A stretch of 64,000 nt of DNA, taken from positions 7,316,001 through 7,380,000 of the forward strand of contig JAWMAR010000030.1 of NCBI GenBank assembly GCA_036785375.1. The letters run 5' to 3'. Position numbers and translations under genes: made by a program. The DNA is from Leucoraja ocellata. Taxonomy: Eukaryota. The notes below the pieces were generated by a model. It searched no databases and had not been told where the DNA came from. It worked only from the letters and a program-made list of their open reading frames with translations. Each line of letters starts with the position of its first letter. The stretch's first letter is position 1. This document shows positions 13,180-57,211 of the stretch, piece by piece.

Positions 13180-13830
13180 CTTGTTTGAGAAGGAACTGCA
13201 GATGCTGGAAAAATCAAAGGTAGATAAAAATGCTGGAGAAACTCACCGGGTGAGGCAGCATCTATGGAGCGAAGGAATGGATGACGTTTTGGGTCGAGAC
13301 CCTTCTTCAGACTAATGTGGGGATGGTGGGGGCGGGAAAAAGAAAGGAAGAGGCCGAGGCAGTGGGCTGTGGGAGAGCTGGGAGGGGGAGGGGAAAGAGG
13401 GAGAAAGCAAGAACTACCTGAAATTGGAGGTCAATGTTGGCTGGGGTGTAAACTGCCAACGCGAAATATGAGGTCCTGCTCCTCCAACTTATGGTGGGAC
13501 TCACTCTGGCCATGGAGGAGAGGGAGGGGGAGAGAAAGCTAAAAGAGAGAAAGGGCTAGACAAAGTGTGACAGGCAATAGCTGAAACAGGCTAGGGCTTT
13601 TTTTGATAGGCGAATGGTTAGACATGAGATAAAAAATACTTGTGAGATGAAAAGATTAAGCAATTGCAACTGTGAATCCAGGGGAAGGTGCACTGTCGGT
13701 GGAGGGGAAGTGCAGAAATTGGTACACATCCAGGTGGGGCATGGAGTAGGGGGAGCAGTGAAAGATGGTCTCACAGACCTCCTGTCAGAGAAAGGAGGAG
13801 AACCTATTTAAAGTAAGCATATCTTGAGAT
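13180..13830 (-). mobile_element. Penelope-like retroelement fragments (pLTR plus decayed GIY-YIG region)
   Basis: Reverse complement of the pLTR at ~13183-13312, followed by sequence similar to the GIY-YIG C-terminus at 54330-54435 (gaggtcctgctcctccaactt, tcactctggccatggaggag). Confidence 0.8.
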
Positions 13831-18144: not shown

Positions 18145-18240
18145 GAGGTAGACAAAAGTGCTGGAGAAACTCAGCGGGCGAGGCAGCATCTATGGAGCGA
18201 AGGAAATAGGCAACGTTTCGGGCCGAAACCCTTCTTCAGA
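18145..18240 (-). mobile_element. Penelope-derived pLTR fragment in MYOZ1 intron
   Basis: gctggagaaactcagcgggcgaggcagcatctatggagcgaaggaaataggcaacgtttcgggccgaaacccttcttcaga is the reverse complement of the family consensus. Confidence 0.85.
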
Positions 18241-18558
18241 TATCCTTTTAATCTGGATATCCTCTTAATCTAAGCTTCCTGCAAACTTTGATTTAAAAAA
18301 ACCCGTGCAGAGCCAGAGATCTCCCCTCTCCTCTCAGGAGTACACGTCAGTCCTTGGAGCTGGCGAATGCAAACAGCTGAAGATATGTGTGATTTACGGA
18401 GTGCAATGTCTGTAATATTTGCCACGCTGGCCTGTAATTTCAGCCTCCAAGGCGAGAGGAATTGGCGAGGCGCGCAGTTCAATAAATACCCAGCGCCAAA
18501 GGTGGGTCTCGCTGTCACTAATAATTATTTTACGATTTTAAACAATTTTCTGTAACAG

Positions 18559-18728
18559 CCGGGGCCGAGATTAACTTCGGGAAGAAGATCAGCATCCCTC
18601 GGGATGTGATGTTGGAGGAACTGTCCCTGATGAATAATAAAGGCTCGCAGATGTTTAAAGAGCGGCAGATCAGGGTCGAGAGGTTCATCTATGAGTCACA
18701 TCCCGACGTCTTTCACCCAGATTCGATG
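18559..18728 (+). CDS. MYOZ1: MYOZ1 coding exon 2
   Basis: tgtaacag| AGAEINFGKKISIPRDVMLEELSLMNNKGSQMFKERQIRVERFIYESHPDVFHPDSM |gtaggc; calsarcin N-terminal conserved block; phases 1 to 0. Confidence 0.96.
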
Positions 18729-18875
18729 GTAGGCATTTCTTCCTTCGGGATGTTACCAGTTAAAACCCAACCTCTAATGCTGCCTCTGAACACATCTTGA
18801 AACAACACGTTCCCACATATCCTTCCCACTCATGCTACCTCTCCATTTCTTCTTGTGTATTTTCTAATATTATCT

Positions 18876-19862
18876 AATATTAATGATCTGGATGAGGGAA
18901 TTGAAGGCAATATCTCCAAGTTTGCGGATGACACTAAGCTGGGGGGCAGTGTTAGCTGTGAGGAGGATGCTAGGAGACTGCAGGGTGACTTGGATAGGCT
19001 GGGTGAGTGGGCAAATGTTTGGCAGATGCAGTATAATGTGGATAAATGTGAGGTTATCCATTTTGGTGGCAAAAACAGGAAAGCAGACTATTATCTAAAT
19101 GGTGGCCGATTGGGAAAGGGGGAGATGCAGCGAGACCTGGGTGTCATGGTACACCAGTCATTGAAGGTAGGCATGCAGGTGCAGCAGGCAGTAAAGAAAG
19201 CGAATGGTTTGTTAGCTTTCATTGCAAAAGGATTTGAGTATAGGAGCAGAGAGGTTCTACTGCAGTTGTACAGGGTCTTGGTGAGACCACACCTGGAGTA
19301 TTGCGTACAGTTTTGGTCTCCAAATCTGAGGAAGGACATTATTGCCATAGAGGGAGTGCAGAGACGGTTCACCAGACTGATTCCTGGGATGTCAGGACTG
19401 TCTTATGAAGAAAGACTGGATAGACTTGGTTTATACTCTCTAGAATTTAGAAGATTGAGAGGGGATCTTATAGAAACTTACAAAATTCTTAAGGGGTTGG
19501 ACAGGCTAGATGCAGGAAGATTGTTCCCGATGTTAGGGAAGTCCAGGACAAGGGGTCACAGCTTAAGGATAAAGGGGAAATCCTTTAAAACCGAGATGAG
19601 AAGAACTTTTTTCACGCAGAGAGTGGTGAATCTCTGGAACTCTCTGCCACAGAGGGTAGTTGAGGCCAGTTCATTGGCTATATTTAAGAGGGAGTTAGAT
19701 GTGGCCCTTGTGGCTAAGGGGATCAGGGGGTATGGAGAGAAGGCAGGTACGGGATACTGAGTTGGATGATCAGCCATGATCATATTGAATGGCGGTGCAG
19801 GCTCAAAGGGCCGAATGGCCTACTCCTGCACCTAATTTCTATGTCTATGTTTCTATGTTTCT
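18876..19862 (+). mobile_element. 5'-truncated young CR1 (HER1-like) LINE with intact RT C-terminal ORF
   Basis: INDLDEGIEGNISKFADDTKLGG (RT FADD motif) through GYGEKAGTGY*, then the 3' UTR and ctatgt repeat tail. Confidence 0.96.
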
Positions 19863-20292
19863 AATGGCTGATAGCGAACATCTGCCATTTAAGATAAAGG
19901 GAATCCCAATACAAGATGTGGCCATTTATATGCTGGCGTGGAGTAGCCGCAGAATGTTATCATATCTCCAGCCTTACCCCAATGATATATACGCCTTCAT
20001 GGTTAAAAAAGAGAAACCTGAAACTACATTAACAAGAGGAATGGGAAGAATAGGATAGCCATTGGAAATAGCGACCAAATAGGGAACCTATCTCTATAAA
20101 GTGGACTGTATACACAAAGCAATTATAATATTATCTTCAGTGAGAGAGACATGTTCCAAGGCATACTGAATGAAAATAATACAAATTGGATATGGGATAT
20201 GTGCAAGTGATGAATAAAACTTGACTTGACTTGAATTTATATTGAATTGACTCCTTAGCTTTTGTAGCACCTGACAGCCTCTGCATTATATA

Positions 20293-20527
20293 TGTGTTCA
20301 AGAAGGAACTGCAGATGCTGGAAGATCGAAGGTACACAAAAATGCTGGAGAAACTCAGCGGGTGCAGCAGCATCCATGGAGCGAAGGAAATAGGCGACGT
20401 TTCGGGCCGAAACCCTTCTTCAGACTCAGACGTCTGAAGAAGGGTTTCGGCCCGAAACGTCGCCTATTTCCTTCGCTCCATAAATGTTGCTGCACCCGCT
20501 GAGTTTCTCCAGCATTTTTGTGTACCT
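20293..20527. mobile_element. Penelope-derived fold-back element with 13-bp TSD
   Basis: 98-bp inverted arms 20328-20425 / 20432-20529 (3 mismatches); TSD tctgcattatata at 20280-20292 and 20528-20540. Confidence 0.9.
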
Positions 20528-20799
20528 TCTGCATTATATACTTCACTCCTGATTTTAAGCCATGTTGAATGTTTTGCAAGCATACTTTACACAATGCCAA
20601 CTTGTATCACAATTTCAAACATACCAGATCTGCTCACGGTCTGATTTAATCCATCTGACTGATATTCAGCCTCATTTTTACCCATATCCAATTTGTATTA
20701 TATTCATTTTCTTTTCTCTTGAAGTTGATGCATAAATTAGTTTTATCACCATATTGGGTTTGGTCTAAATTAAAATGTATAGAATTTTAATCCAAGAAG

Positions 20800-21800
20800 A
20801 GGATTAGGCTGAGGGGAGACCGGATAGAAGTATATGAAATGATGAGTGACATACGTCGTCATGCAGATTGAATTAATAAAGTTGGAAAAAAAGAGTCAAG
20901 AGAATGAATTCATGGAGTGCATTTGGGATCATTTTTTAGAAGAATATATTGCAGAGCCAGCAAAAAACAGGTCACCTTGGATCTGATAATAAGTAATGTA
21001 GCAGGTTTTTAATTAATAACCACAGTGTAAAAGATCATAGTATGATAATATTTTGTAATTAATTTGGGAGGGAGAAATTTGGGTCAGAAACAGTTGTGTT
21101 TAACTTAAAGGAAGGAATTGCAATGAATGTGGATTTAATAGGCTATCGTTGACTGGACTGATAAATTAATGGGGAAGACAATTGATGATAAAGGCAAATG
21201 GGTAAGAAGGTAATTCATAACTACTCAGCAGATTAATCATAGTAAGGAGAAACATTTCCATGGAAAGGATGAACCAAGCAGAGCTAACCAAGAAATTGAA
21301 CAAAGGTATTTAAAGAGAAAACATATAGAGGCAAACATCAGCAATGGACTTGAAGACTGGAATACATTCGGCATCAGGCAAAGGAGGCCAATCATTATAA
21401 TAAATGGAGGAAATATACTATGAGAGTAAATATATGGGAGTGTAAACCTGGACAATAAGAGGTTCTTAAAGGAAGAATCAAGTCCCTGATCATTTGGCCC
21501 CTTACAAAATGAGCTTGTCAAATAGTTTTGAGGTAGAAAGACGTGGCAGATGAATTAAACGGAGACTTTGCACCCATTTTTATAGTGGGTATAAGATACT
21601 ACAACATTCCAATAATACTGAATGATGAAGGGAGAAATTAAATACCCTCACCATCACAAGAGATTTAGAATGAAGCCAACTAATGAGGTGAATGACTGAT
21701 TATTTCCTGGACCGATGGCTTTTATAATAGAATGCTAAAATGAATAGCTATTGAGGTAATGGATGCACTACTTACAGTATATCTTTCACAAATCCTTTTA
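20800..21800 (+). mobile_element. Old degenerate CR1 ORF2 fragment
   Basis: Decayed EFMECI..FLEEYIAEP..TLDLIISN-like endonuclease-end sequence and the downstream linker; many stops. Confidence 0.6.
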
Positions 21801-21850
21801 AAAGTTTAAAAGTTTATTGTTTTTTTTTCTTTGCTATTTTAATTTTCCAG

Positions 21851-22103
21851 GAAAACTTTCAGAAATACCTTCCTGGCTCTGGTGTTCTGCTGACGACTGG
21901 GCCAGGTGGTGTTCAGATAATGGACTCCAAATTCCAAAGTGGGTACAGCCACCATGGTACATATGGAAAGGGCACAGCACCAGCGCCATACCCCAAACCT
22001 CAGCATCTTGCTGCTGTCTCCGGGATCATTGGAAAACATGGAAGTGGCCAGGGAGAAGGAGGAAGCGGTGAGGCTGGAGGTGCAGCAGGAAGTGGGGTTC
22101 ATG
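21851..22103 (+). CDS. MYOZ1: MYOZ1 coding exon 3 (Gly-rich region)
   Basis: aattttccag| ENFQKYLPGSG...GSGQGEGGSGEAGGAAGSGVH G|gtaagc; phases 0 to 1; human has DHFQKFLP plus a Gly-rich segment here. Confidence 0.93.
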
Positions 22104-23769
22104 GTAAGCATGTGAACGAGATTCACCCCAACAAAACCAAATAGCTTTGCAGAAAGTGTCGAAGACCTGAGGAAATCACCCTTGAACCTTGTCAGTAAAC
22201 ATGTGAGGTTCTCTGAAGCTGTTCACCTGTCAGAGTCTAATTCAACTCATGATACATGTTTGAATTGGAGGGAGGGATTAATGGGGATAATAGATGGAAA
22301 AACCAAGGGGCAGTTTTGTTGTGTCTTGGAGTGAGAGAGGTCAATCTATCTCCGAAGAGTCACCATTCTAGTGACCCCACAGTCTACAGAAGGCTTGGAA
22401 ATGCCAATGAGAATGAGGCATCCATGTGGCTTGAGTATTAGATGACATGTCTACATTTTACACAGTGAGCAGAGCTGCTCAGAAAATAAAGATGCTAACC
22501 AATTTGAAAGTAATTTAAAACTTATATGAAGCTCAGGCACTGAATTAATTAAAATTGTATTTGTCTGGCCAAGAAACAGCAACAGTAATGTTAACCTAGA
22601 CCAATGTATGCAAAGTTAGGAAGTAAAATGGATCTTATGGTGTCTTTCAAAACTTCAAAATATCCCAGCAACAGTTTGCTGCCAATTAACTTATTTTGGA
22701 ATTGTTTCTTAGTTATGAATGGATTGAACTGCTTCATATATTTTCCAGAATTGCTTTTTTTTTTTGTCAGGATTTTCATAGAATTTGTTATTTGTGAAGA
22801 ACTTGGGAAAAGTGAAGCAATTCTTATCCTTCGACCAATTGGTAACAAAAAGGAAGCATATTTTTCTGGACATCGTTGGGAGTGTGACTGGCAGTGACAA
22901 TGGCATATTTAAATCCCTGCTGAACTATTGTGAAGACAATGTTGGGTCTTCAACTTGAGTCGAGCTGCTGCAGGCCAATCGACAGATGGGACTTGAGCAA
23001 GCTACCTGAAAAGGCTTCGCAACAACTCCAGATTTTGGTCCTTGGCCTCACTCTCTGAGGAAATGAATTATCAATCTACAGCTTGCTTATGATTGTATTT
23101 AGCTGCAGGCCCCCTCGGATAATTGGTCTCAAGTGTTCAGGGAGCCATATTGATGATTTGACTCATGAGTAGCAAATGAAATCAGACATAAAGTTGATAA
23201 GTCATAGGAGCAGAATTAGGTCATTCAGTCCATCGAGTCTACTCTGCCATTCAGTCCTAGTTGGTCTATCTTTCCCTCGCAACCCCATTCTGCTGCCTCC
23301 TCCACATAATCTTTGTCACCTTTACTAATCAAGAATCTGTCAATTGCCACTTTAAAAATACCCAATTACTTGGCCGCCTCATTTTAGATTCACCAAGGAA
23401 ACTGTTCCTATATCTATCATGTCAATCCCAGTCAGAATGTCCCACTTAAATCACATCTCATTTTTCTTAACACTGGCAAATCTTACTTAATCTTTCATCA
23501 TAAGGTAACTCCATCATTCCTGGAATCATATAACCTACTCCAACATCTAGTTCATGTTCTGTCCTTAAATGCCCAGGGACTGTGTAAATCCAATTGCACT
23601 GTGTAGAGTCACATTAATGGGTACTGGTAATCTTTCGTCTCTGGTCTCCTGGTGATCAGGATTATGTGAATGTTAAAGTGGCACGATCAGGAATGTTAAA
23701 CTGGCATCATGTTTAAATGCATGATTGCTCAGCTGCTCATGTTTTACTGTGCTGTTTGCTCCCTGACAG

Positions 23770-23959
23770 GTGGTGGTGGTGGTGAAGATGGGAAGGGAGC
23801 TGGAGCAGGAGGCAAAAAGCACACATCGGTAATCAAAACCTACTTATCACCCTGGGAACAGGCCATGGGGAATGATGCGGATCTGAAGTCCACCATGAAT
23901 CTGCACATGGCGTTACCAGGTTCTGCAACCAAACTTCATGCCTACAAGTGTTTCAACAG
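23770..23959 (+). CDS. MYOZ1: MYOZ1 coding exon 4
   Basis: ccctgacag| GGGGGEDGKGAGAGGKKHTSVIKTYLSPWEQAMG...YKCFN R|gtgaga; phases 1 to 2. Confidence 0.95.
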
Positions 23960-24247
23960 GTGAGATTCCTGACTTAAAGTGAACAGAAGGTGTAAGAATT
24001 AGTTACCCAGTAATTAAATCACATTGACGGAGATGTTTAACCTCTTCTCCTTTGGTTGATTATCTGTCCAATTGCAGGAAATGAAAACAAGGGAGTAGGA
24101 TATGGATAGAAAGGATGGGAGAGATGTGGGGGCAGATGTAGCATATGGGTATGAAATCCACTCTGTCTGAAGTGAAAATCCTCCCTGCTCAATCCCAGTT
24201 CTCGCTACTTCTATGTAATCCCACTTTCGCATCCACTCCCATATTAG

Positions 24248-24450
24248 GGACAATTTTACAAGAGGCCAATTAACCTACAAACCTACACATGTTTGGGATG
24301 TGGGAGGAAACCAGTGCGTGGGAAGGAAACCCACACAGTTACAGGGAAAACATGCTAACTCCACACAGACAGCACCAGAGGTCAGGATCGAACCCGGGTG
24401 TATGGCGCTGTGAGGCAAAAACGCTACCAGCTACGCTACTGTACCACCAT
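24248..24450 (-). mobile_element. tRNA-derived V-SINE (HE1-like)
   Basis: Minus strand reads ggtggtacagtagcgtagctggtagcg (A box), cccgggttcgatcctgacc (B box), then the V-domain gtgtggagttagcatgttttccctgt..ggtttcctcccacatcc. Confidence 0.85.
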
Positions 24451-24619
24451 GTGTGCATGAGGATAGTGATTTTGACCTACTTTTCACAGAATTTTGCAGA
24501 TATTTTACAAAACCCTACAAGGCAGATTGATTATAATGTGAATGACTACGTGGTCCAAAACAAATGGTGGCTCTTGGATTACATTTTTTTTTCAGTGGGA
24601 GAAAGGAAAGAGTATTAAA

Positions 24620-26045
24620 GCTTAAGTGACTGGGGGGCTGCAACAGAAAGATTTCACAGGGTTCCTTTGCCTTTGCAACATACATGGATATCTGGGATTT
24701 AAATGCAGAACTGTGATTGTGGACTTAGCCAATGATTCCAAAACAGGTAGTGGGGCTAATAGTGAAGAAGAATATCATAGAGATCATGAAAGTTTAATGG
24801 ATATAAAAGAGGCAAATGTAATTCAGTCAGGATTAGTGTAAAATAATGCCTGGGAATAGGGCAAACAACTAATGGGGTCACAATGAAAAATAGCATATAC
24901 AAAAAATAAGTTGAGAATAACTGGGATTTTGGGAGTGCACGTCAGCAGAAGGTAATAAAGTAGGGATTAGTGATACTTGCCTTAAGTGTTTCAGACAGAC
25001 AGTATAAGAGTAGAAAGGCAATGCTGGAACGGAAAAAAAAATACTTAGGATACAGTTAGGGTATTATGTACAATTCTGGTCCATGGTTCGCCAGTGACCA
25101 CATTGACACTCGCAATAGGGTGAACTCACATGGTTTAGTCCATTAGTGGTAAGCAAGTCCAGGACTCCATGGGGGCACTGCCCCTTGCCATCAGAGTGCA
25201 AGTGCGATGATGTTGGCAATCTCGGGCTTGTCCCAGCAGCTTAGGCCTGGTCTTTGAAGGAGGAAGTTTGGCGATTTCAGGCTTCTACCTGCAGTTCGCC
25301 CCTGCCTCGAGAGGAGCTGCTGATGGTACAGGATTCTTCCTGGCAGCTCAACGTTGGGTTTGGAGAGGCGACACTGGATTATTCCGGCAGCCAGTCTTTG
25401 CCTCTGTGTGTGTGTGTGGGCGCAATCCCTCGTTGTCTGTGGGCAGGTAGAGATTCTGGCAACTCAGGCTTGCCCTAGCCACTCAGTCTTAGCCACAGGT
25501 AGAGGTGATGGCTAATTAGGGCTTCTTTCCTGATGGTCTAATCTGAACTACACAGTGGCACTGGTGGTCTTGAGTCTGTCCCGTGGCTCAGTCTTCCTCG
25601 TATCTGCAACAGGAGAACACAACTGGGAGGGAGGCAGCCCACTTTGTTTCCCTTCCTCCCATCTTCCTTCTCCTTCTTCCACTTTCTCTTCTGCTTCCTC
25701 TCTCATCCTCTCCCTTGTCACAATCTCCCTCTCTGGCTTGAAATCCTGGGTTTGAAAGAGAGTAGCTAAAAAGTGGCCAACCGATAGCCATCATTCTTGG
25801 GATTGGTCTCTCTTGGTCAGTCAGCCTGTTAATGGGATCAGAGCTGCACCCAAGGGAGAGGGCGCTATCACAAAGGGTGCGATAGCTCAAGAGAAGAGTT
25901 CTGAGGAAATGTACTATGGTTTTACCAGGCTGGTATTAAAGAATTATAGTTACATGGGGAGACCAGTCAGGCCAGCATTGTTTACTTTGGAACTGAAGAG
26001 GTTGCGGCCCAGTTTAATTTGAGGTGTTCAAAGTCATGAGAAACT
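24620..26045 (+). mobile_element. Old CR1 RT fragment interrupted by an ~780-bp unclassified insertion (25083-25860)
   Basis: Decayed CR1 coding sequence runs to gtattatgtacaattctggtcc (YCVQFW-like) at ~25082 and resumes after ~25860. Confidence 0.6.
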
Positions 26046-26049
26046 ATTA

Positions 26050-26335
26050 GGCACAGTGGCACAGCTAGTTGACCCACAGCCTTAGCACCAGAGACCAGAT
26101 TCAATCCTGATCTTGCTTGCCATCCATGTGGAATTTGGATGTTCTCTTCTGACTACATGGGGTTTTCTCTGGTGCTTGGATTTTCTCCCACATCTTAATG
26201 ACATGCAAGTTGCGAGATTAATTAGATTAGATTAATGTGTAAGTTAGTGATAGAATCTGTTGTGCAAAATTGTGTGGTTAATGATCGGTATGGTCTCGAT
26301 GAGCTGAAGGATCTGCTCTGTGTGGTATCATTGCT
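26050..26335 (+). mobile_element. Degenerate tRNA-derived V-SINE
   Basis: ggcacagtggcacagctagtt..gattcaatcctga..gtggaatttggatgttctc..tctcccacatc, ending in a CR1-like tail. Confidence 0.75.
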
Positions 26336-26997
26336 CTAAGTTTAAAGGTACGTAAACGACTGAAGTTTTGTCTTCTCTCTCTTTTTCTTTATTTGCATCA
26401 TTTGGTTCCTTCCAAATTCTAACAGAATTTGTCCAGGCACCATGTGGTTTCTTATAGTGAATTCCTCCAAGAGGCTAGTATATGATTGTTTTTACATGCA
26501 TTGAGTTACCCAAGAGATTGAAGAAGTGACAGTGAACAAGTACAATATATACACATATGGACCTCCGAAAGGCACTTCATGAGTAACCAAAGTGCATGAG
26601 TAACCACATCAGAATTAATCAAAAAACTGAAACTTATGTTTTTAAAGAGATAACATGGCCACATAATTGTCTTGAGATAGGAGGCAATGATCATGGTGAT
26701 TTTATTTCTGAATGAAGTAAAATATGCATTGGAGTTTTCCTGGGATTAATAGTAGGACCAATGTTTTTTGTTTATTATTTGTGTTCAGAGAATTTAATTT
26801 CAAAGTTTACAGTTGATATGAATCTTGGTAATGTGAGCCAATATACAGTATGCAAATCAATGTGAAATGGTTCTCTTTGGGAATAACAACCTTGAGGAGC
26901 AGTGTAATTTGGTTTGATTTGAGCATGTGCTCGATCAGAGGACACCAGGGAATCAACGATACAACTCTTTGTGGATGCAGGGCAAGTTGATCAGGGT

Positions 26998-27171
26998 AGA
27001 AACAAGGAACTGCAGATGCTGGTTCACAAACAAGGACGCAAAGTGGAAGGGAATGAAAAAGGACTCAGCGGGTCAGGCAGCATCTCTGGAGAACATGAAT
27101 CTCTGGAGAATCTATCCATGTTCTCCAGAGTTGCTGCCTGACTCGCTGAGTTATTCCAGCACTTTGTACGG
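26998..27171. mobile_element. Penelope-derived fold-back element with 14-bp TSD
   Basis: TSD aagttgatcagggt at 26984-26997 and 27172-27185; internal inverted arms (actcagcgggtcaggcagcatctctggagaacatg / catgttctccagagttgctgcctgactcgctgagt). Confidence 0.85.
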
Positions 27172-27868
27172 AAGTTGATCAGGGTGGTTGGAAAAGTCCA
27201 TGGAATACTTATTTTGCATTGAATGTGAAAACAAAGCAACGCCACACTTTTATACATTGCTTCTTAGGTCATTGCTGAAATACTTGCTGCCAGACTTTAG
27301 GAAGCATGTCAGCTATATGGAGGAAATAAAGAGAATTATCAATGATGAAGTACTTTATCTGTTATCTATTTAGATGTGCCGGGACTGTTCTGCTCACAGC
27401 AGGAGGGAACATGGGTTCCAAATGGCAAAGAGCCGTGGTGCAATAAGGAAGTGAGAATTATTTTTTCTGCCAGTGTGGTGGTTAGCCAAAATGAACAGAT
27501 TAAAAACAATGGCAATGGGAATGGAGGGGATACTTCTTTACAATTAGGGCTTTGAAGATATGGATCCTTTGAGCTAGTCCCATACAAACTTTTAAAAGAA
27601 AAATTGATAGACACTGGAAGTAGATTGATATGCAGCTTTCTTTGGAAAAGGGTGGAAAGTGGGACTAAATTGTTTCTCATATGCGGTGGGGAAATTATGG
27701 GCTAAATGACCTCAGTCAAATTTAGAAACAGACAAACTGTGGAACCATTCAGCATGGTTCTCTCTGCTAATGTTTTCTGCACTTTCAATTTCAAAACCTC
27801 TTTCCATCCATTGAGAGCAGCATGAGGTCGTGTTCCCAGATCTGTAAAACCATTTCCTAATTCAGCGA

Positions 27869-28055
27869 TAGACACAAAATGCTGGAGTAACTCAGCGGGA
27901 CAGGCAGCATCTCTGGAGAGAAGGAATGAATGGGTGACGTTTCAGGTTAAGACCCTTCTTCAGACTTCATACATCAGAGATGCTGCCTGTCCCGCAGAGT
28001 TACTGAGCATTTTGAGCTTTGGTTTAAACCAGCATCTGCAGTTCCTTCATACACA
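27869..28055. mobile_element. Penelope-derived fold-back element with 14-bp TSD
   Basis: TSD tcctaattcagcga (27855-27868) / tcctaattcagtga (28056-28069); inverted arms. Confidence 0.85.
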
Positions 28056-29814
28056 TCCTAATTCAGTGACTACTCTTGGTCAAGTGACTAATATTTCACC
28101 AATTACCATCTGGGCAGGCAGCACATGCATAGTTATAACATAGGAAATACATATATCTTGTATATGGAAATAGGAGAAGACTGTATAGGCACTCAATTCT
28201 GACATTAAATATCATTCAACCACTTTTTTTGCCCAAATCAATATCCCTTGATCTCTTTGAAAATTGCATTCTGAATATTAACTAATAATTACTCTATGTG
28301 TAGCTGTACGCATCTATGATGGATGTTTTTACTCTTCATTACACCAGAGATGTTCAATCATTTAGAAATTGGCGATCTACCCTGTGGAGGTGTCCAGGGA
28401 ACAGGCTAAGGCTATTTCTGTTGGTATTTTCATTTAACATGCATGTGGAGTAAGCCGGTGTATTATAAATGTAGCCTAAGGTACATGTTCTATCTCCCTT
28501 GTTCCTCTACTTCTCCGTCTCAGACCTGGGTAGCCTGTTGTAAGTTATTTTCCAAGTAGAAAATGTCCAGAAAGAACTGCAGATGCTGGTTAAAATCAAA
28601 GATAGACACAAAATGCTGGAGTAACTCAGCAGGTGAGGCAACATCTCTGGAGAGACGTTTCGGGTCGAGACCCTTCTTCAGACCAGAATGGGGTACTCAA
28701 TTTTCTGACCCAAGAGCAATCCCTTGCCATAGCACTAAGTTCAGCATGGAACCACCAGATCCCAACCTTTCCACCACATTTTGACATTCTGCTGGTGCAG
28801 TTCATTCTACCCTGAAAATGAATGAAACACTGGATTGTGGAAAGAATGTGGAGCCACTGTTTTCTGAAGAAAGGATCCTGCTTTCAGGAATGTTTTCATA
28901 TTTCCCTTGACCTCTTTGAGCAAAACTAGGTAATATAATGTGAAGCCCTGTTTTGGGTGTCTACATTTGTATGAGCAACCAGAATTAGATCCGGGAATGG
29001 AGTGTGGAAACACATCAATATGGTAAACATTGCTAAATGCCAGTTGTTAGTTGACTGGTACATTTCTGTTACAAGGTATTAAGGATTGTCAAATATGAGG
29101 CTGTTGTCACAAGCCAGTCCTACTCTCACTGATTATCGGAAAGGTCTGAGAGGGTGAATGGCCTTCAGATCCAATGTGCACCTTGAAGGAGGTGCAGGTA
29201 GTTGCTAGAGATCATTCCAAGAAAATTGGTAGAGTGAAGGTGGTGGTAGTAGCGATGACGGCTTGGGTAAAAGACATTATGTGTGGAGAAAGTACTTGTG
29301 TCACAAGTCTTGTTGCTTCGAACAGTTGCCCAAATTGCACTGTCTTCTGCGACAAAGACCAGCTGGCCAATAACCAGTCCACTCTTCAACTAGAAGATGA
29401 TTAACAAATACAGGCTCAGAGTGAGCAGAGCTAATTTTGTAGCCACCAATGAATGTAGTGTAATAAGGACATGAAAGAACAGTTTTGCATGTAACCGTCG
29501 AAAAGATGATGAGAGTTTCAAAATTATACTGCCAGAAGTCTCTAATATCTGTGTGACCTGATCAGTATTCTTAAATTAGACTGTTGCCCTGTGACTTGAT
29601 ATAGCTGTGTCACTGGATATGGTGGCTTAGTTTTGAAATCCATCCACATTCTTCCAGTAGAGCTGCCTCACTTAAAGGACTTCAGACTCCTTGGAAAATA
29701 AAATAAATATCAAATGCATTTCTGCAAAAATGGCGCCATAGTGGGAAGTAGTGGTAGTACAGAATTAAATAAATGGATGACAATCCAATGGTTTACATTA
29801 ATAATCCAGAGAAA

Positions 29815-30065
29815 AAAAGACACAATGTGCTGATTCAACGGGACAGGCAATATCTCTGGAGAACATGGATAGGTGACATTTTGGGTTGGGATCCTTCTTC
29901 AGACAGCATTATTTATTCCTGCCTCTAATTTCCGTGTCTGAAGAAAAGCCCCAACCCAAAACACCACCTATCAATGTTCTCCAGAGATGCTGTCTGACCC
30001 GCTGAGTTATTCCAATACTTTGTGTCTTTTTTCGTAAACCGGCATCTGAAGTTCCTTATGTCTAC
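29815..30065. mobile_element. Penelope-derived inverted pair
   Basis: Minus-strand arm ending ccttcttcagac (~29904) and plus-strand arm starting gtctgaagaa (~29936). Confidence 0.8.
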
Positions 30066-30149
30066 ATTTTATTGCTCTAATGCAAACAATGTGTGCCCAC
30101 TTTGAAGAAGTTCTCATTTGTTTGAAGAAGGGGCCTCTTCTATCCTTAT

Positions 30150-30920
30150 TTCATACTTTTGATGTTTTCATCGCTGGCCTTTATCCAACCAACTGTCAAT
30201 CGAAACCGCCCTCACCTATAGCCATCTATCACATGTAGGAAAGAACTGCAGATACTGGTTTAAATCAAAGGTAGACACAAAATGCTGGAGTAACTCAGGC
30301 AGGACAGGCAGCATCTCTGGAGAGAAGTCTGAAGAAGGGTCTCGATCTGAAATGTCACCTATTCCTTCTCTCCAGAGATGGAATACTTACTCCAGCATTT
30401 TGTGTCTACCTTCCATCTATCACTTGCCAGGCCGTGTCCTGCCCCCATCTCTCTTCCAGCTTTCTTCCCCCTACGACAATCAGTCTAAAGGCCCAGATTG
30501 AGTGGATGTAGAAAGAATGTTTCCAGTAATGGGAGAGTCTAGAACCAGAGGGCACAGACTCAGAATAAAAAGACATACCTTTAGAATGGAGATGAAAGGC
30601 ATTTATTTAGCCGAAGGCTGGTGATTTGTGGAATTCATTGTCAGAAATGGCTGTGGACACCTAGAGATTTAAAGCAGAGATTGATAGGTTCTTGATTAGT
30701 AAGGGTATCAAAGGTTATTGGAAAAGGCAGGAGAATGTTGAGAGGGAAAAATAAATGAACTATGACTGAATAGCAGACTAGACTCGATGGGCCGAATGGC
30801 TTAATTCTGTTCCAATGTCTTTTGGTTGAAGAAGAGTTTTGTCCTGAAACATCACCTATCCACATTCTCCAGAGATGCTGCCTGACCTACTGAATCACTC
30901 CAGCACTTAGTGTCTTTTTG
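30150..30920. mobile_element. Nested cluster: Penelope-derived element interrupted by a fold-back copy (30233-30412) and a CR1 3' fragment (~30490-30820)
   Basis: TSD ccatctatcac at 30222-30232 and 30413-30423; CR1 tail gactcgatgggccgaatggcttaattctg; the pLTR resumes at ~30827. Confidence 0.8.
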
Positions 30921-32328
30921 TCATTAAAGTCAAGCCAGGAGATCAGCCTGGGTTCAGTAAAGAGAGTGGAAGGGTATGGCAGATATAGCACTAGGCATAC
31001 CATAGCGAATTGCCAACATGGCAAAGTTGCAACATGAATACCAAAAATATGGTCCAGTTGTCTTGTAAATAACAGCCAAACTCAACTCTCTGCAATCCTG
31101 CCTCTGTAAATGGTGTAAACCACTAACATTTAGCCATGGGAAACATTAATCAAAGGAAATTGCTCCATCATTTGGAGCCATACTTCTCCAGGAAGATGGC
31201 TTTAGTTGCTGTAAGATAATCATCACAGTCTCATGATTCCAATAAGATTGTACCCTCGGCACAATTATTTTCAGATGCTTCATTAGGAATGACCATCTCC
31301 AACGTGGGACAATCTAACCGCAACTTTGAAATCCAGTGACATTGCTATCACAGTTCTTCAGGATCAACAGCCTAGGGAATCACCATTTACTAGAAATTCA
31401 GCGAGACCACTCACATAAATGAAAAACAGATCTAAGGTTAAATGTCCTGTAGTGAATGAATCACATCCTGACTCCCAAAACCTTTCCGCCATCTGCAAAA
31501 CACAAGTCAGGAACATTGTGGAATATTTACAGATGAGGGTTGCTTAATCAACACCTGAGGAGCTCAATATTATCTCAGACAAAACAGGGTGTTGGATTGA
31601 CATATTATTATATAATCATTCCCTCCTTCCACCGCTGCCACCATTTTCAAAATGCAATGTAATTACTCAATTTGGTTACTTTGAACAGCATCTTATAAAT
31701 CTAATACCTCATCACCAATAATGACAAGGAACGTATTTACATAGCTATGTACAATATCGATACGTTCCCTTCCAAATGATAAACTGTTCTCATGGAAATA
31801 TTTTGTATGTTTTTCATTGCTACTGAAGTTTAAATGTTTCAATTCCATATTAAATGGTACTGTGGAAGTACTTTCATGATACAGCACATCAAGGTGATCC
31901 ACCATCTTGACTTAAGGGCAATTAGTGAAGGACAATAAGTGCTGACATTGTGTTAGCAATGGCCACTTTCAATGAATGGAGATATTAGAATCGTGGGGCA
32001 TCTGATTTTTTAATATGTTACATTTGTAAATGATGTACTTTTAAATCACTTTGCACCTATTTACCTTGAAGCTGCAATACAGGTGCTTCCTATTTGCTCC
32101 ATTGTATCCGTATAAGAACTTTATGCTCCAAATGAGCATCCTTTCACATTCATCCTGTTAATATTTCTGTTCATTATTTTTCTTGCCTGTTATTGTTGCT
32201 GACTTGTTTCCATTTCAAATGAGGACAGAATGTTATTATTCCTAAAGGATGAAAGAAAGATCAGGAGTCAATTTAAAATATTGTCCGATGTAATAATTAA
32301 ACTCAAACATGTTTAAAATCCCTTGCAG

Positions 32329-32560
32329 AACTGCAATGCCCTATGGAGGGTTTGATAAGGCAGCGAAACTGATGACGTTTCAGCTCCCAGAATTTGAGGC
32401 AGCTCTTCCAGAACTCGAGCCCATGGTTGTGTTCCACCAAGATATCAGCACTCGACCTAATTTTAACAGGACCCCTCTGGGCTGGACTCCAACAAGCACA
32501 GAGAATTTGGTTAACCTTGGAATAGATCTCGAGTTTAACGCTGAAACTGATGACTTGTAG
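32329..32560 (+). CDS. MYOZ1: MYOZ1 coding exon 5 (last)
   Basis: cccttgcag| (R)TAMPYGGFDKA...RPNFNRTPLGW...ETDDL*, ending in the calsarcin E[ST][DE][DE]L PDZ-binding motif. The spliced CDS is 76+170+253+190+232 = 921 nt, 306 aa plus stop. Confidence 0.96.
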
Positions 32561-41596: not shown

Positions 41597-42194
41597 ATCT
41601 TGTAAAAGTGCAGAGGCAGACTATAAAAGGGAACACAAACTTTGCACATTATTATTCAAAATCTTTTATGAGCTATAACTAAGTTTATCACAGCTGTAGA
41701 AATATATGTGTATATAGTTAAAATATTTATATTTATTAATAAATCAGTCCCAAATAAATCAATGTTAAGACGCCTAGGTTTCAGTTACTCAAGCACTTTG
41801 TGTCGTTTTCTGTAAACCAGTATCAGTAGTTCCTTGTTTCCACACTGAGAAGCACAGGTATAAAATGTACTCTAGTTGGGAGAGGTTTCCAAGCTCATCT
41901 CTAATTGTAACCCAGTAACAGCACTGATTACAAGCTGAAAGCCAGGGATGCCATGCTTTATTTAAAGCTCAGCAGAAGATGAAGAGTGTATGGTCGAAAA
42001 ACCTGAAAGCTAGAAATCAGAATTAAAACTTGAAAAGGATGAAAATAATCAACTGAAATTCTGTAAATGAAATGACAGGAGTAGTCAGAAACAGTGTGTC
42101 TGCTAGGGCAGTTCTGTTTATGGATTTTGAAAAGGTATTTCAGTGGGACAGGGTATGAAGAAGGGTCTTGACCTGAAACATCATCCATTAGGTT

Positions 42195-42960
42195 GTGTGA
42201 TAGGAGCAGAATTAGGCCAATCAGCCCATCAAGTCTACTCCGCCATTCAATCATGGCTGATCTATCTCTTCCTCCTAACCCCATTCTCCTGCCTTCATCC
42301 CATAGCCCTTGACACTCGTAATCAAGAATCTATCTATCTCTGCCTTAAAAATATCCATTGACTTGGCCTCCACAACCTTCTGGCAAAGAATTCCACAAAT
42401 TCACCACCATCTGACTAAAGAAATTCAGTTCAATTTAGTTTATTGCCACGTGAAATGCTTTTTGTTGCGTGCTAACCAGTCAGTAGAAAGACAATACATA
42501 GAAAATAGGTGCAGGAGTAGGCCATTCGGCCCTTCGAGACTGCACCGCCATTCAATATGATCATGGCTGATCATCCAACTCAGTTTCCTGTACCTGCATT
42601 CTCTCCATACACACCCACCCATCCCTTTAGCCACAAGGGCCACATCTAACTCCCTCTTAAATATAGCGAATGAACTGGCCTCATTGGCTATATTTAAGAG
42701 GGAGTTAGATGTGGCCCTTGGGATTACAATCAGTCCATTTACAGTGCACAGATACATGATAAGGGAATCTCCTCTTCTCTTTCCTAAAGCAACGTCCTTT
42801 AATTTTGAGGCTATGACATGACCTCTGGTTCTAGAGTAGACTCTCCCACTAGTGGAAACATCCTCTCCACGTCCACTCTTATCACTGGTCCTAGAGTAGA
42901 CTCTCCCACTAGTGGAAACATCCTTTCCACGTCCACGTCCACGTCCACTCTTATCACTGA
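42195..42960 (-). mobile_element. Triple-nested LINE fragments (CR1 > Rex1/L2-type tail > young HER1-like CR1 with 5' inversion) plus a 60-bp tandem duplication
   Basis: Outer CR1 ~42195-42422 resuming ~42767; middle element ~42423-42497 resuming ~42722; inner copy ~42497-42720; tandem units 42825-42884 and 42885-42957. Confidence 0.75.
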
Positions 42961-43067
42961 CTATTCGCCATTCCTATTTATGGCGAATTCGCCATTTCAC
43001 TGTGCATCCATTCATTCAAGAGATGCCGCTGATTTATTCCAGCACCTTGTGTCTCTGTCTCCATCGC

Positions 43068-43100
43068 TGTTGTAGTTGTAGTTGTAGTTGTTGTTGTTGT
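43068..43100 (+). repeat. (GTT/GTA)n microsatellite at the 5' edge of the CpG island
   Basis: gttgtagttgtagttgtagttgttgttgttgt. Confidence 0.9.
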
Positions 43101-43500
43101 GCGGCGGCGTTGTCCCCCTCGCATGGCTGCGACCGCCTCTCCCTCCCTCACGACGGTCCGCGCCGTCCGTCCGTCCGCGCCAAAGTTCTGTCCGCTCGCG
43201 AGAGGCGGGCGCCGCGCTGCGGGCCAACGGCCGCCACGTCTCGCGATGCTTTCCCCGCCGGTCCTGGCCATCGCATTCGCACAGTCGCTGCGGGCGGACG
43301 AACCGACCGGCGGAGCGCGTCCATCTTAACAGGTGAATACATACCTCAACGATCCGCTCGGTGACGGCGTGGTTCAGTATTCAGTGGCGTCAGGTGTCCG
43401 GAGACCCCGAGTGCCGCAGCGCCGGGGGCGGGGACCAGACGGACTGTCAAAGGCTGCGATCTGTGGGGACGGCAGGTATTGACCCTTGACCTGGCCGGAG
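43100..43500 (+). promoter_or_regulatory. CpG-island promoter / first non-coding exon (donor at 43332/3), probably of USP54
   Basis: The only strong CpG island in the window. Donor CAG|GTGAAT; CGCG (BANP-type TCTCGCGA) motifs at 43194-43203 and 43239-43248. Identity is inferred only from the known vertebrate same-strand order SYNPO2L-MYOZ1-USP54. Confidence 0.7.
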
Positions 43501-43963
43501 GAGGCAGTGGGCAGCAACAAACACCTCCCACCCTCAGCTACTCCTCTCTCAGCACCCTCTATCCGTCCCCAATCTTGCACCCACCCTACCCGTACAAACT
43601 CTACTACCCTCAGCCACCTTCCCACCCTCTCAATCCCCCTCGTATCCCATCAAATTCTCCCAAACCTTATCCGCCCGAAACGTTACATATCTCCTTCGCT
43701 CCATAGATGCTGCTGCACCCGCTGAGTTTCTCCAGCATTTTTGTGTACCCCCAAATCTCTCCATCTCCCTAACTCGGTCATCCTTCCCAACTGCTTCCCA
43801 CTTTTCCCATTCCCCTTCCCACTTACTGCCCAATGTTTCTCCCTCCACCTCTCATTCCCTTGTACCAGTTTCCCCCTTCTCCTCCTCTGTTCTTTCCATC
43901 CCATCCACCCACTGCCCCTGCCCCAGCCCCATCTGACCCTCACTTGGTCAGTATCCAACCTTC

Positions 43964-43994
<31 letters not shown>

Positions 43995-44598
43995 GCATCA
44001 TCACTCTGTTCCACTCCCCTCTCCATGCCCCCACTTCTTTACCCACAAATTGTATAGGTCTTTTGCTGCACTTGCAACCCCGACCCATTCCTCCCCAGCC
44101 CCTGCCGGCTCTCTGACCCCTTCCCCACCCCACCCTCTTCTGCCGAACCGACCCCTTCGTTCCCCCCCCCACTTGCCCGACCAACCCATTCAACATCTCT
44201 GCCCATCCAACTGATCCTTTCGTCTGTCCCCCGATTGACTGACCCCTTTCTTCCCCGTCTGCCCCCTGAACTCTTCCCCCCTCCTTGCTGGCCCCCTGAC
44301 CCCTTCCTGCCCAAGCCTGCCTCGATCATTTTCTCTCCCACCCCCTGGATCCTGACCCCTTCCTCCCCTCACACATCACCTGCGTCCCATGCCCGCCTGA
44401 CCCCTCCCAACCACGCATACCTGGCTCCACTGACTGCTCCATCCTCCCTGCCATCCTCTGCCCAGCTTGATCCCACATCCGCATCCAAACAGGTATATTG
44501 CTAGAAAAGATTTAAGGGTATATAGGTAAAATGCAGCATATGGGATAGTGTGGATGGGTATCAGACAGCATGGACAAATTGAGTGGAACTGCCTGTTT

Positions 44599-52751: not shown

Positions 52752-54102
52752 GTGAGTATTGTAATAATTTAATTAAATATGTAGCGCTGAAAAGACTGGA
52801 CTAGATTTTATAGTAAATGCAACCCATGCAACAACAAAGGAAATTGAAATGAAAAATATTCTGATGAAAGTAAATGCCTTTGTTAATTGTGTATTATTTC
52901 TTGGGTTGACTTGGTAATGTTCTATGTTGGTGTTTTCCATGTAGTATGTGGTGGACATACTGGTCTTGCGATCTTTCTCATTGGTACCACTCGGAGGAGA
53001 AAATTGGTGTTTTAAAGAAGAAGTTTATATAATACTTTATGCAAGACCAGTTCCACAAAAAATAAATTGGGATAACTATTGCAGCATTAAAATCTGTAAT
53101 AAATGATTTATTGGCGTTTAGCTAATGCAGTAATATAACCTGTAGTCAGCAGGAATAATTTTCATTGAAAGACAAATTAAAACAGTTCAAGATTGCATTA
53201 ATTCTGAACAAACGTTCATTTCTATAAATGTCATTTGCTGTGGATTTGCATGTGAAGGAACCAAAGTAAAAAGATCATCTAGAATTATTTGAAACATATT
53301 TCTGTAAATTGATGAGAATGTTTATGATTTGGTGCAAATTTGCTGCTGCAAGATTATGAATGTCAATTGATCGGAAGATGGCATTCTTTGTAACTATGAA
53401 AGATAGCACCTATATTTAATCAGTTGGATAAATTTGACCTGAGTTTTCCAATTTTGAAAAATAATCTTAAGTAATTCACAGATTTTATTTATTTTGCTGA
53501 GTCTCCGATGCAATATTTCTAGCTATCCTTGAATCATATTTGGTAAGTTGGAATTTGATGAAAATTAAAATGGTTTGTTATTGTCACGTGTACCGAGGTA
53601 TAGTATAAAGCTTTTGTGGCATTTATTCCAGTTGAAGAAAAGACTATGTAATTACAATCAAGTCATCCGCAGTGTACAGATAAAGAGTACAACATTTAGA
53701 TAAAGTCCGATTAAAGATAGTTCAAATGTTTCTAATGAAGTAGATGGGAATTTTGATGAAAGTTTCTGTAACTGAGATTTCCCTTTAAAGTTAAAGGAAT
53801 ATTAAAGTATTTTGAAATCAATAATGAGCCACATTTTCTTCTTTGAGAATTATTTAATTGTGTGAATTGCTAAGTTGCATATGGGTGTTTCCAGTACAGA
53901 GGCAATTATAGTAAATAATTATTAAAAATCAAGGAATTCCTGCCCAACTGGTACTATAACCTTGCATAAGGGTTCTGTGTCAGTACAAAGAGGCATTTCA
54001 CCACTGCTGAGACCAATTAAGAATAAACAAGAAATGCAATTAACATTGATCTTCCTAGATCTCATCAAAGAACATAACAAAGGTTATGATGGAAGAAATC
54101 AG

Positions 54103-54685
54103 TTCCAGGTGTGACAAAGGTTCACCTGCATCTCCTCCAACCTCATCTACTGCATCCTCCGCTCAAGGTGTCAGCTGATTTACATCGGGGAGACTAAGCG
54201 TAGGTTGGGCGATCGTTTCGCCGAACACCTCCGCTCAGTCCGCAATAACCAACCTGACCTCCTGGTGGCTCAGCACTTCAACTCCCCCTCCCATTCCCAA
54301 TCCGACCTCTCTGTCCTGGGTCTCCTCCATTGCCAGAGTGAGCAACAGCGGAAATTGGAGGAACAGCACTTCATATTCCGCCTGGGGACCTTGTGTCCGG
54401 ATGGCATTAACATTGAATTCTCCCAATTTTGCTAGCCCTTGCTGTCTCCTCCCCTTCCTTAACCCTCTAGCTGTCTCCTCCCACCCTCCTATCCGCCCGC
54501 CCTCGGGCTCCTCCTCCTCCCCTTTTCCTTCCTTCTCCCCCCCCCACCCCCCATCAGTCTGAAGAAGGGTTTCGGCCCGAAACGTCGCCTATTTCCTTCG
54601 CTCCATAGATGCTGCTGCACCCGCTGAGTTTCTCCAGCAATTTTGTGTACCTTCGATCTTCCAGCATCTGCAGTTCCTCCTTGGA
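54103..54685 (+). mobile_element. Penelope-like retroelement 3' end: GIY-YIG endonuclease remnant plus terminal repeat
   Basis: FTCISSNLIYCILRSRCQLIYIGETKRRLGDRFAEH..VAQHFN..RKLEEQHFIFRLGTLCPDGINIEF* (GIY-YIG), a C-rich spacer, then the pLTR at ~54556-54685. Confidence 0.93.
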
Positions 54686-54909
54686 CAGATTTGGAGAAAA
54701 TGGTTTCTAATTCCTAGATATCTAACCAAGCAATGTATCCTTCAAATTTTGAGGATGTTGACAGAACTTGAGAGTCTGTGCTACAGAGAGAGGTTAGGCA
54801 GGCTAGGACTTTATTCCTTGGAGTGCAATAGGATGAAGGGTGAACTTATAGAGATGTATAAGATCACCTCTCAAAGGGTGAAGGTAATAGATTGGGTAAG
54901 TGAACAGAT

Positions 54910-55172: not shown

Positions 55173-55384
55173 TGTAGGAAAGAACTACAGATGTTGGTTT
55201 AAATCGAAGATAGACATAAAATGCTGGAGTAACTCAGCGGGACAGGCAGCATCTCTAGAGAGAAGGAATGGGTGACGTTTTGGGTTGAGTTTGGGGTCTG
55301 AAGAAGGGTCTTGACCCAAACATCACTCATTCCTTCTCTCCAAAGATGCTGCCTGTCTTGCTGAGTTAATCCATCTTTTTGTGC
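55173..55384. mobile_element. Penelope-derived fold-back element with 16-bp TSD
   Basis: Exact TSD ctactttgaaataatg at 55157-55172 and 55385-55400; inverted arms with a ctgaagaagggtcttgaccc core. Confidence 0.88.
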
Positions 55385-57211
55385 CTACTTTGAAATAATG
55401 ATCTTTTAAGTTGCAGGAATTGTTTTTACACCAGTGCATGCCATATTGGGTGTGTACTATTCGGTGCCTGCTGCTGCACTGCTGTGAAGGTGAGAAGTGA
55501 ATGGGATAATTAAAAGAAAGTTGGTCTGTTTATAGAATTGTATAACAGTTTCTAGCTGAAATCTTGCAAAACTGATGTTTTTACTGATTAATTTATCAAA
55601 GTGTAGTATCACCATCTGTTAAAGTAGCTAATTGAAATGTAATTTTTCAATCTGTTTGAGAAGCACAATATTGACTAATACAGAAAGTACCCTTTCATAA
55701 AATCTTGGTGTAAACATGTAAGAAGGAAATCAAGAGAGGACAGCAAATGATAAATTAACCGTATGGAGCAGCAGCCAAAAAAGGCATATTTAATAAAGAA
55801 ATTCAATTGAAAATGAATTAAATTATCTGAATGGCAATGATTAGTATCAGCAATAAAATAAGGGAGATGGAGAAAATGTATGATGAACATACAGTTGGAC
55901 AATGCGACAGTAGTAAAAAAAGAGATGGCCATAAGGAAATCAAAATAGAATCCACTTGGAGAGAAAATTAAACAAAGATTTGATTCTACAGGTAGTGGAA
56001 GAGATGTGGAGGAAGACATTTGGACAGATTATTAAAAAAAATAGAAGGTTAATAATTTCAACTCGCCCAACATTGATTAGACTGAAGAAATAGTTATTGG
56101 GAGTAAGGGAATGAAGATCTCACATTATATAAAGAACTCTTTATATAACACTCAAGAGTGTTTAATTGTCATATGCACTGGGAATGGAACAATGAAATTC
56201 TTGCAACTATCTTCGGGAAATAGACACAGAAGCCTGAGAGTTTTTACCTTTAGGTTCAAGATTAGCTTCTTCCCATCAACCATCAAGTTATTGAACCATG
56301 CCGTACAATCCTAACCATAACACCACCACAGCATTGAACTACGAAGAGCTTTTAAGGGTTGAACAACTAAATTTGGCCTGCAATATTGTGGTCCTGTGAC
56401 CCAATATAACTGATAATTTATTATATTATTATTCATTACATATTTTTACCTAGTTGTGTTAATATGACTTTGCATTTTGTTTCCTAAATAGAGCTGTGGA
56501 ATTTTTCCAGGCCCTTGTTTTCAACTGAGCTATTTATAATGTCCAATTTGAAATGTTTGCTTTGAGCTCTTTTGATGCAATTGTAACTTGATAACATTGT
56601 GGGAAGCAGTGATATGGATAAAGGAAAAGATCATTATTGTTTTGGTAATTATTTACATAATGATTGATAAAAAATACCACATAAAATGTGGCTTAATGTT
56701 ACCACTTTGTGATCAGTTTAGAGCTTTAAAATATGTTAATGTGTTCACGTTATTTTGTGTTTTCCAACTTGCATGCTTTGGATCAGTGGTTTTTAAGAAA
56801 ACGTTTTTTATTTTGGATTAAGTCACTGTAAACATTTTCTGTCTCTTAATTTTTTTTGGTTTCTGTTAACATTTTCCAACTGTTGACATTTTTTGGCCCT
56901 GTTAACATTCTCATGGTCTGTTAACACTCTTGCGCTCTGTTTGGCATAAGTCAAATGTGGTGACAAATTCATCTTGAATCACACTGTGAGTATATATGAC
57001 ACCTAACTAATTTTCTGCACCAGAGAGTCAACTTCCTTTTACCAGAAATACTACTTTGGTGATCTATTCATTCCAGATTGTTAAAATATCAGTAAATTTG
57101 TTATGCTGTACTATGGAATCTTGATTTTGAGAATTATATTTAAATTGGCCAAATTCACGGAAGATGTTTAAGTGAGAGATCTTTTAAAATCTGAAAGGAA
57201 AGATCTCAAGC

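Follow-up and report, generated by a model that had tools for sequence, protein, structure and literature searches.

Stub copies of a hammerhead-bearing Penelope-like element in Leucoraja ocellata begin and end at positions that suggest copying from uncut RNA

Minimal hammerhead ribozymes occur in the pLTRs of metazoan Penelope-like elements (PLEs), for which Cervera and de la Pena put forward a circular-template model (PMC4209133). In PLEs of the EN+ type, a CX2-5CxxC linker between the reverse transcriptase (RT) and the endonuclease (EN) marks the Neptune and Nematis clades (PMC8557442). The Penelope element of D. virilis has an internal promoter (PMC2377424), rotifer pLTRs carry an Inr-like TCACT, and self-priming fold-back has been proposed for PLEs (both PMC3846280). 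The protein of the Anolis element PAc extends both strands and primes internally, 111–118 nt past stem II, at two sites downstream of the hammerhead; uncut RNA serves as the template, the hammerhead cuts only with protein, and the steps that follow priming in PLEs are described there as still unvalidated (PMC11167929).

The locus described here lies in a 64,000-nt stretch of Leucoraja ocellata DNA (the window; all coordinates refer to it unless stated otherwise). The letters at 54559–54586 (+), read from the window as CTGAAGA-A-GGGT-TTCG-GCCC-GAAA-CG-TC, are exactly those of the preliminary description of this DNA, and they lie within a young, 5′-truncated element copy (Table 1). Compared with a long copy, the focal copy begins 465 bp before the core; no clear target-site duplication (TSD) was found for 54094–54688. 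A genome search with the focal copy returned 3415 candidates, the best 40 of which, as scored, were 96–100% identical; 38 other scored copies among these candidates shared 96–98% identity with it over ∼540 bp, and the 3′ end TTGAACA was common to 30 loci. The window also contains an older long lineage (13188–13521, −), 73% identical to the focal copy, which has a GIY-YIG end of its own.

Table 1. Coordinates of the focal copy, its parts and selected relatives in the window
Feature	Position	Strand	Remarks
Solo ∼95-bp GUU-subfamily copy	18146..18240	-	begins at 5′ wall
Head-to-head pair, focal subfamily	20292..20529	.	exact core in each arm; one arm tailed; flanked by 13-bp direct repeat
5′-truncated young EN+ Penelope-like retrotransposon copy	54094..54688	+	endonuclease end, 3′ UTR, pLTR head and tail
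C-terminal GIY-YIG endonuclease remnant	54121..54435	+	open to native stop; PF01541
3′ UTR, pyrimidine-rich	54436..54553	+	differs in every lineage
TCAGT, presumably Inr-like; 5′ wall of solo copies; 5′ strand of 2-bp stem I	54554..54558	+	5/5 columns invariant in 7 lineages
Minimal type I hammerhead core	54559..54586	+	24/28 columns invariant in 7 lineages; predicted cut after 54586
Stem I 3′ strand; also complementary to core (predicted inactivating helix)	54587..54599	+	folding, pair counts
Conserved hairpin region up to first 3′ terminus; putative RT priming site 1	54600..54654	+	3′ ends cluster 54646-54654
Optional ∼35-bp tail up to second 3′ terminus; putative priming site 2	54655..54688	+	3′ ends cluster 54676-54688
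Older head-to-head pair	55174..55390	.	16-bp flanking direct repeat; cores decayed

The GIY-YIG remnant reported upstream of the core is real, with a match to PF01541 (E 9e-4, 20 bits) that lies under the 22.6 cut-off, but it does not directly adjoin the core as had been stated: it ends at 54435, about 120 bp before it. In longer copies (L011, L023 and L029) the same frame is joined to an RT with a YIDD motif and a CX4CxxC linker; the open frame of L011 is 499 aa, and the RT of longer copies matches RVT_1 (E 7e-8). RT and C-terminal GIY-YIG thus share one ORF, as in EN+ PLEs, and the CX4CxxC directly before the endonuclease conforms to the CX2-5CxxC of Neptune and Nematis. Judged by this linker motif, the parent would be a Neptune/Nematis-type PLE, a label that spans both clades. 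Two full-length copies (L082 and L081) measure ∼4 kb, and a truncated copy ahead of each forms the pLTR; the notion that L081 is an element starting at the core was rejected, as this is a pLTR split by a later insertion. A pLTR formed by partial tandem, an inverted truncated copy, an optional tail and TSDs are all seen in the parent family. By structure this is a young, autonomous family, of which the focal copy is a dead end piece. In full-length copies, an out-of-frame ATG (54609, +54), invariant in seven lineages, opens a 41-codon uORF over the main ATG (+167); the latter, in the L082 and L081 leader after the tail, sits in a splice-donor-like AAG/GTATG.

Conservation was assessed on seven lineage consensuses, two of nine clusters (three copies each) having been dropped as copies nested in other repeats. 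Upstream of TCAGT only 4 of 55 columns are invariant. By the Inr consensus, and by analogy with the TCACT of rotifer pLTRs, we take TCAGT at 54554–54558 to be Inr-like. Conservation is not specific to the ribozyme, as 29 of 38 columns in the downstream hairpin region (+48..+85) are invariant too, about like the core.

The length of stem I aside, every anatomical feature listed for minimal PLE hammerheads is present, in agreement with the initial assignment to a minimal type I hammerhead of this kind. The core consists of CUGAAGA, an extra A, a 4-bp stem II (GGGU/GCCC) with the loop UUCG, GAAA, the palindromic ACGU and GUC. The CUGANGA and GAAA boxes are invariant in the seven consensuses, and position 17 (H17, the NUH site) is C in 76, U in 25 and G in 1 of 102 copies. 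Stem II is opened by G10.1-C11.1 after the extra base and is paired in 86–89% of 220 in-register copies at each of its four positions; its variant stays paired (U-A/U-G). The covariation check on this stem showed one-sided change only, with no two-sided compensation among common pair types. The tiny palindromic stem III (15.2-16.2) is ACGU in all seven lineages. Stem I is weak, with 2 bp at the core, a 2×2 mismatch and then two weaker pairs, so that pairs 1–6 are formed in 90, 92, 8, 3, 82 and 66% of 61 long copies, and the outer two pairs (82% and 66%) exist only in read-through RNA. The paired stem II variant and the weakness of stem I had been noted from the letters before, and both hold in the larger sample.

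In the window, the near-exact core was matched seven times at ≤3 mismatches, three times exactly, and none of 100 shuffled windows held any such match; the loose CTGANGA..GAAA pattern gave 17 matches against 7.4 expected. A profile search found 30 units, only six of which keep the strict core (both boxes, paired stem II and ACGT-H). The eleven further positions listed previously are all copies, but several of them (9140, 10962, 13290, 30329, 51873 and 55298) have lost G12 or the ACGT palindrome. None of the 15 Rfam hits at E ≤ 10 belongs to a hammerhead family; the miRNA matches were rejected as hairpins, several being head-to-head pairs, all under the gathering score. Across 1.374 Mb of fetched genome sequence we counted 701 arms, which cover 4.0% of it; 52 of the 701 keep the strict core. 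The first 774 kb (323 arms, window included) were chosen before the density was seen, and later stretches were partly picked for density. At ∼500 arms per Mb, extrapolation to the 3.44-Gb assembly gives roughly 1.4–1.7 million arms. The window region is present a second time, inverted, on the same contig (C30:5.96-6.00 Mb) at 99.8% identity, so copy counts are somewhat inflated; other genes and repeats are likewise doubled (also C88 and C10 pairs), which is probably haplotype duplication in the assembly.

Young copies (at least 88% identical to the focal copy; n = 84) comprise eight that extend upstream, 33 solos and 43 arms of inverted pairs, so that 76 of 84 are stubs without ORF sequence. 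The preliminary description had read the repeats as a ribozyme-bearing non-autonomous family. A self-standing family of this sort is unsupported: the focal copy is the truncated end of an autonomous RT + GIY-YIG family with parents in the genome, and the short copies, which share no 5′ module of their own, show the same core variants as seven long lineages linked to upstream sequence. They are better read as stubs that several autonomous lineages would have made. If they were instead a self-propagating SINE- or retrozyme-like family, transcribed and cut alone, this would suit the fixed position of both their ends, their TSDs and their very large number, as well as the dominance of the GUU lineage among young short copies (47 of 58), which share a second diagnostic base absent from the focal lineage. 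However, long UTR-linked GUU copies also exist, so the GUU diagnostics can come from another autonomous lineage; the core variants are covered by the seven long lineages, inspection revealed no tRNA- or 5S-like head, and direct tandem arrangement is rare among core-bearing copies (3 of 278). We regard a self-propagating family as improbable, more so than the circular template considered below. An origin of GUU by CpG decay was rejected because C17 is kept in 19% of copies, as compared with 85–95% for the other six CpG Cs. The scarcity of direct tandems also means that cis dimers are rare. Tandem arrays of a ∼54-bp unit from the post-CUGANGA part, found in the C10 block near 45,000, 71,500, 87,900 and 98,300, contain no intact ribozyme and constitute a PLE-derived minisatellite.

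The stubs have a fixed 5′ boundary. Among the 33 young solos, 17 start at 54556–54561 and none in the 11 nt upstream (54545–54555), while 11 start further inside the core, one at the cut and four beyond it. The peak at this wall has a Poisson p of 1.5e-11; within ±2 of the cut, one start was observed and 1.2 were expected. Truncation is not confined to the wall, since the remaining 16 of the 33 begin further in. Among 121 solos irrespective of age, 94 match the element upstream through the T of AGT; 69 of these 94 continue through G, 47 of the 69 through A, and 24 of the 47 reach C. Sixteen of the 24 continue as TCAGT and probably represent long copies that went unrecognised; without them the count is 8 of 31. 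Exact TSDs of at least 10 bp (10–18 bp) adjoin the stub in 16 usable cases among 379 examined (5 of 21 calls were dropped as minisatellite units), and in 13 of the 16 the end of the TSD falls at −7 to +3 relative to the first C of the core, with no shared extra exon. At the other end, the 3′ termini fall into two clusters ∼35 bp apart, with TSD-defined ends at C3+89-95 and C3+119-135. Both boundaries together suggest that uncut RNA, starting three bases before the ribozyme, was the likely template of the stubs.

The polypyrimidine tract followed by CAG at the wall also resembles a splice acceptor. The wall could then be a 3′ splice site (CAG/UCUGA), or else an RT stop, with the core kept mainly as a promoter or protein-binding sequence and no longer as a catalyst. 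The pyrimidine tract precedes TCAG in all lineages, the modal wall start is the T of AGT (6 of the 17 solos), the GUU lineage has spread well, sequence downstream is conserved as much as the core, and an intron in D. virilis ends at helix I (PMC4209133). Yet the G and A before the T are matched far above chance, the TSDs adjoin the stub without exon-1 sequence, and structure-induced stops would be expected 3′ of the hairpin, not 5′. In addition, both boxes, the ACGU palindrome, the NUH site and the G-C pair beside the extra base have all been kept. A splice site or RT stop is the least probable of the alternatives that we weighed.

Adjacent arms stand head-to-head in 125 cases and tail-to-tail in five. 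The 101 complete head-to-head pairs carry one tail in 78 cases, none in 21 and two in 2, whereas 48.7 one-tail and 16.6 two-tail pairs would be expected under independence (p 1.5e-9; the tail probe matches 10 of 2000 random 50-mers). Flanking repeats of at least 9 bp were found for 31 of the 101 pairs and for two in controls. Copying from uncut RNA with priming at two sites, one per strand, would give such pairs. The untailed arm reaches further 5′ more often than the tailed one (37 vs 19, p 0.02), and since this was not predicted it weakens the two-site model. Self-priming fold-back is an alternative for the pairs, and it fits the eleven inverted junctions that lie inside a near-perfect palindrome of stem II and GAAAC.

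Folding and decay bear on whether the hammerhead cuts. In the predicted folds, bases after the cut fold back onto GAAGAAGGG(U) and the probability of stem II is ∼0 in all seven lineages. A catalytic dimer was calculated at −7.3 kcal/mol and two monomers at −21.2 kcal/mol, which places the dimer 14 kcal/mol above, in models that leave out tertiary and protein contacts; the stability of the whole strand was unremarkable (z −0.25). In 25 young long copies (5 of 30 loci were dropped as duplicates) there was no excess conservation of the core, with changes at 3 of 248 non-CpG sites in the core and 99 of 10,822 in the flank (Fisher p 0.50), as expected because inserted copies are dead. The weak stem I, the competing helix in every predicted fold and the neutral decay of young copies bear out the earlier caution that activity is uncertain. 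As a ribozyme the hammerhead is likely weak and dependent on protein or on dimer formation, and it would stay mostly uncut while the element is copied.

RNA reads were available from two related species (A and C), not from the sequenced individual, as poly(A) and 3′ single-cell libraries, and they derive mostly from passive copies. Raw reads cover the stub deeply, with no pile-up of molecule starts or ends among the loose ends listed; among the same ends no RNA end lay at the GUC cut and no template-switch adaptor at AGT. These reads neither confirm the RNA start nor show cleavage. In the single-cell 3′ libraries of species A (X22, X23; L041:3660-3780, L082:4101-5400), antisense reads exceed sense reads ∼4-7 fold, which could mean that oligo-dT primed internally on A-rich stretches of antisense sequence or that transcripts are depleted of sense copies. 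Six reads from X23 join the leader back to AGT-CTGAAG (L082:4789 to 4590), a ∼200-nt head-to-tail junction that corresponds to a genomic tandem, a circle or a template switch.

If tandem transcripts were cut by the hammerhead into unit-length circular RNA templates, with long copies and pLTRs arising from reading round the circle, partial-tandem full-length copies such as L082 would be accounted for. The NUH triplet is kept, a re-ligated circle would be scarless, so that long copies cannot speak against it, and the two pairs gained by stem I on read-through (82% and 66% of 61 long copies) would make the 3′ copy the better ribozyme. Cut RNA, however, should give stubs from 54587, where one of the 33 solos and three of the 43 inverted arms begin. 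Nor would a circle account for the wall at AGT; the RNA ends listed for the related species include none at the cut, and the calculated energies disfavour the catalytic dimer. The circular template thus seems rather unlikely to us, if the least so of the three alternatives.

Taken as a whole, the reading that we think fairly probable is that of a pLTR-borne minimal hammerhead, weak and mostly uncut, with RNA starting at AGT, two-site priming and an off-state helix. Element RNA would start at A54556 of TCAGT, 3 nt before the core, and run through the ORF into the second repeat copy, making it terminally redundant. The RT-endonuclease would prime at two internal sites, ∼95 and 130 nt from the RNA start. 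Long truncated copies, the focal one among them, would come from priming on the 3′ repeat; when the 5′ repeat is primed instead, synthesis would run off the RNA end and leave 95/130-bp stubs. When both nicked strands are primed, one per site, head-to-head pairs with one tail would result. In free RNA, the post-cut bases may pair back onto the core and hold the ribozyme off; an AGU start has room for no more than 2 bp of stem I, in keeping with how few stubs start at the cut. A more specific conjunction is tentative and, with all its parts together, unlikely: that about a million stubs record Penelope integration, that the hammerhead, which a conserved anti-core helix keeps inactive and which begins 3 bases after the RNA start, works as a decapping switch, triggered by protein and placed 31 nt from the cap, and that a single RT-endonuclease dimer uses two sites of the same RNA to prime both strands, hence exactly one tail per double-ended insertion.

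Nothing points to a role in host genes, within small numbers: sense and antisense copies were 6:6 and 5:6 in the two gene spans checked, with no enrichment or depletion. Sense copies had been placed in introns of MYOZ1 and the next gene. MYOZ1 was confirmed, with exons at 18555–32557 (+) and batoid and shark myozenin-1 as best matches. It is followed by USP54, the first coding exon of which begins ∼3 kb past the window end, so the focal copy is not between its coding exons. It would lie in a USP54 5′-UTR intron only if the CpG-rich stretch at 42000–44000 (GC 0.52, o/e 0.68) is the USP54 promoter, which is possible.

A minimal hammerhead borne by the pLTR of a PLE is of a published kind, and the focal motif is ordinary in kind. 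No description of the family in cartilaginous fish, or of a 5′ wall before the core, was found in the main texts searched (supplements, Repbase and Dfam lay outside the search), and the family has likely been named before. Cartilaginous fish are not named in the part of PMC4209133 used here. The genome offers very many insertion junctions, and the value of the family is statistical and is carried by these junctions rather than by the ribozyme: the 5′ wall, the few cut-site starts and the one-tail-per-pair rule directly constrain priming models and the role of the ribozyme. At about 4% of sampled DNA, the family is also relevant to the annotation of repeats and to spurious miRNA or ribozyme calls in cartilaginous fish.

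The minimal hammerheads of metazoan PLEs (PMC4209133) share with this one the same boxes, the extra base between 9 and 10.1, G10.1-C11.1, the palindromic 15.2-16.2 without loop 3 and the position in the pLTR, and they likewise occur mostly as solitary truncated copies and close opposite-strand pairs. Stem II has 4 bp here and 7–8 in Schistosoma; stem I has 2 bp and a 2×2 mismatch here, against 4–5 bp typically and 2 bp in D. virilis. Strict motifs would number ∼130,000 (extrapolated from 52 in 1.37 Mb), far more than the 4,000 in coelacanth and 9,000 in Xenopus (same source). Neptune and Nematis EN+ PLEs (PMC8557442, PMC3846280) show the same order of RT and GIY-YIG, the CX2-5CxxC linker, strong 5′ truncation, partial tandem pLTRs with an Inr-like motif, inverted 5′-truncated copies, TSDs and a 30–40 bp tail, often at one end only; in contrast to those described, ORF-less stubs dominate here. 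Non-LTR retrozymes (bioRxiv 10.64898/2026.07.22.740005) have the same PLE origin, type I hammerhead, non-coding character and occurrence in a cartilaginous fish, but form head-to-tail arrays with at least two hammerhead units, whereas the present copies are solos or head-to-head pairs (125 such pairs against three direct tandems). Poseidon PAc of Anolis (PMC11167929) has the same two internal 3′ termini past the hammerhead, uncut RNA as the apparent template and likewise no RNA-seq ends at the cut site. It belongs to a different clade and its ORF starts at stem II, whereas the first in-frame ATG here is at +167 under the uORF.
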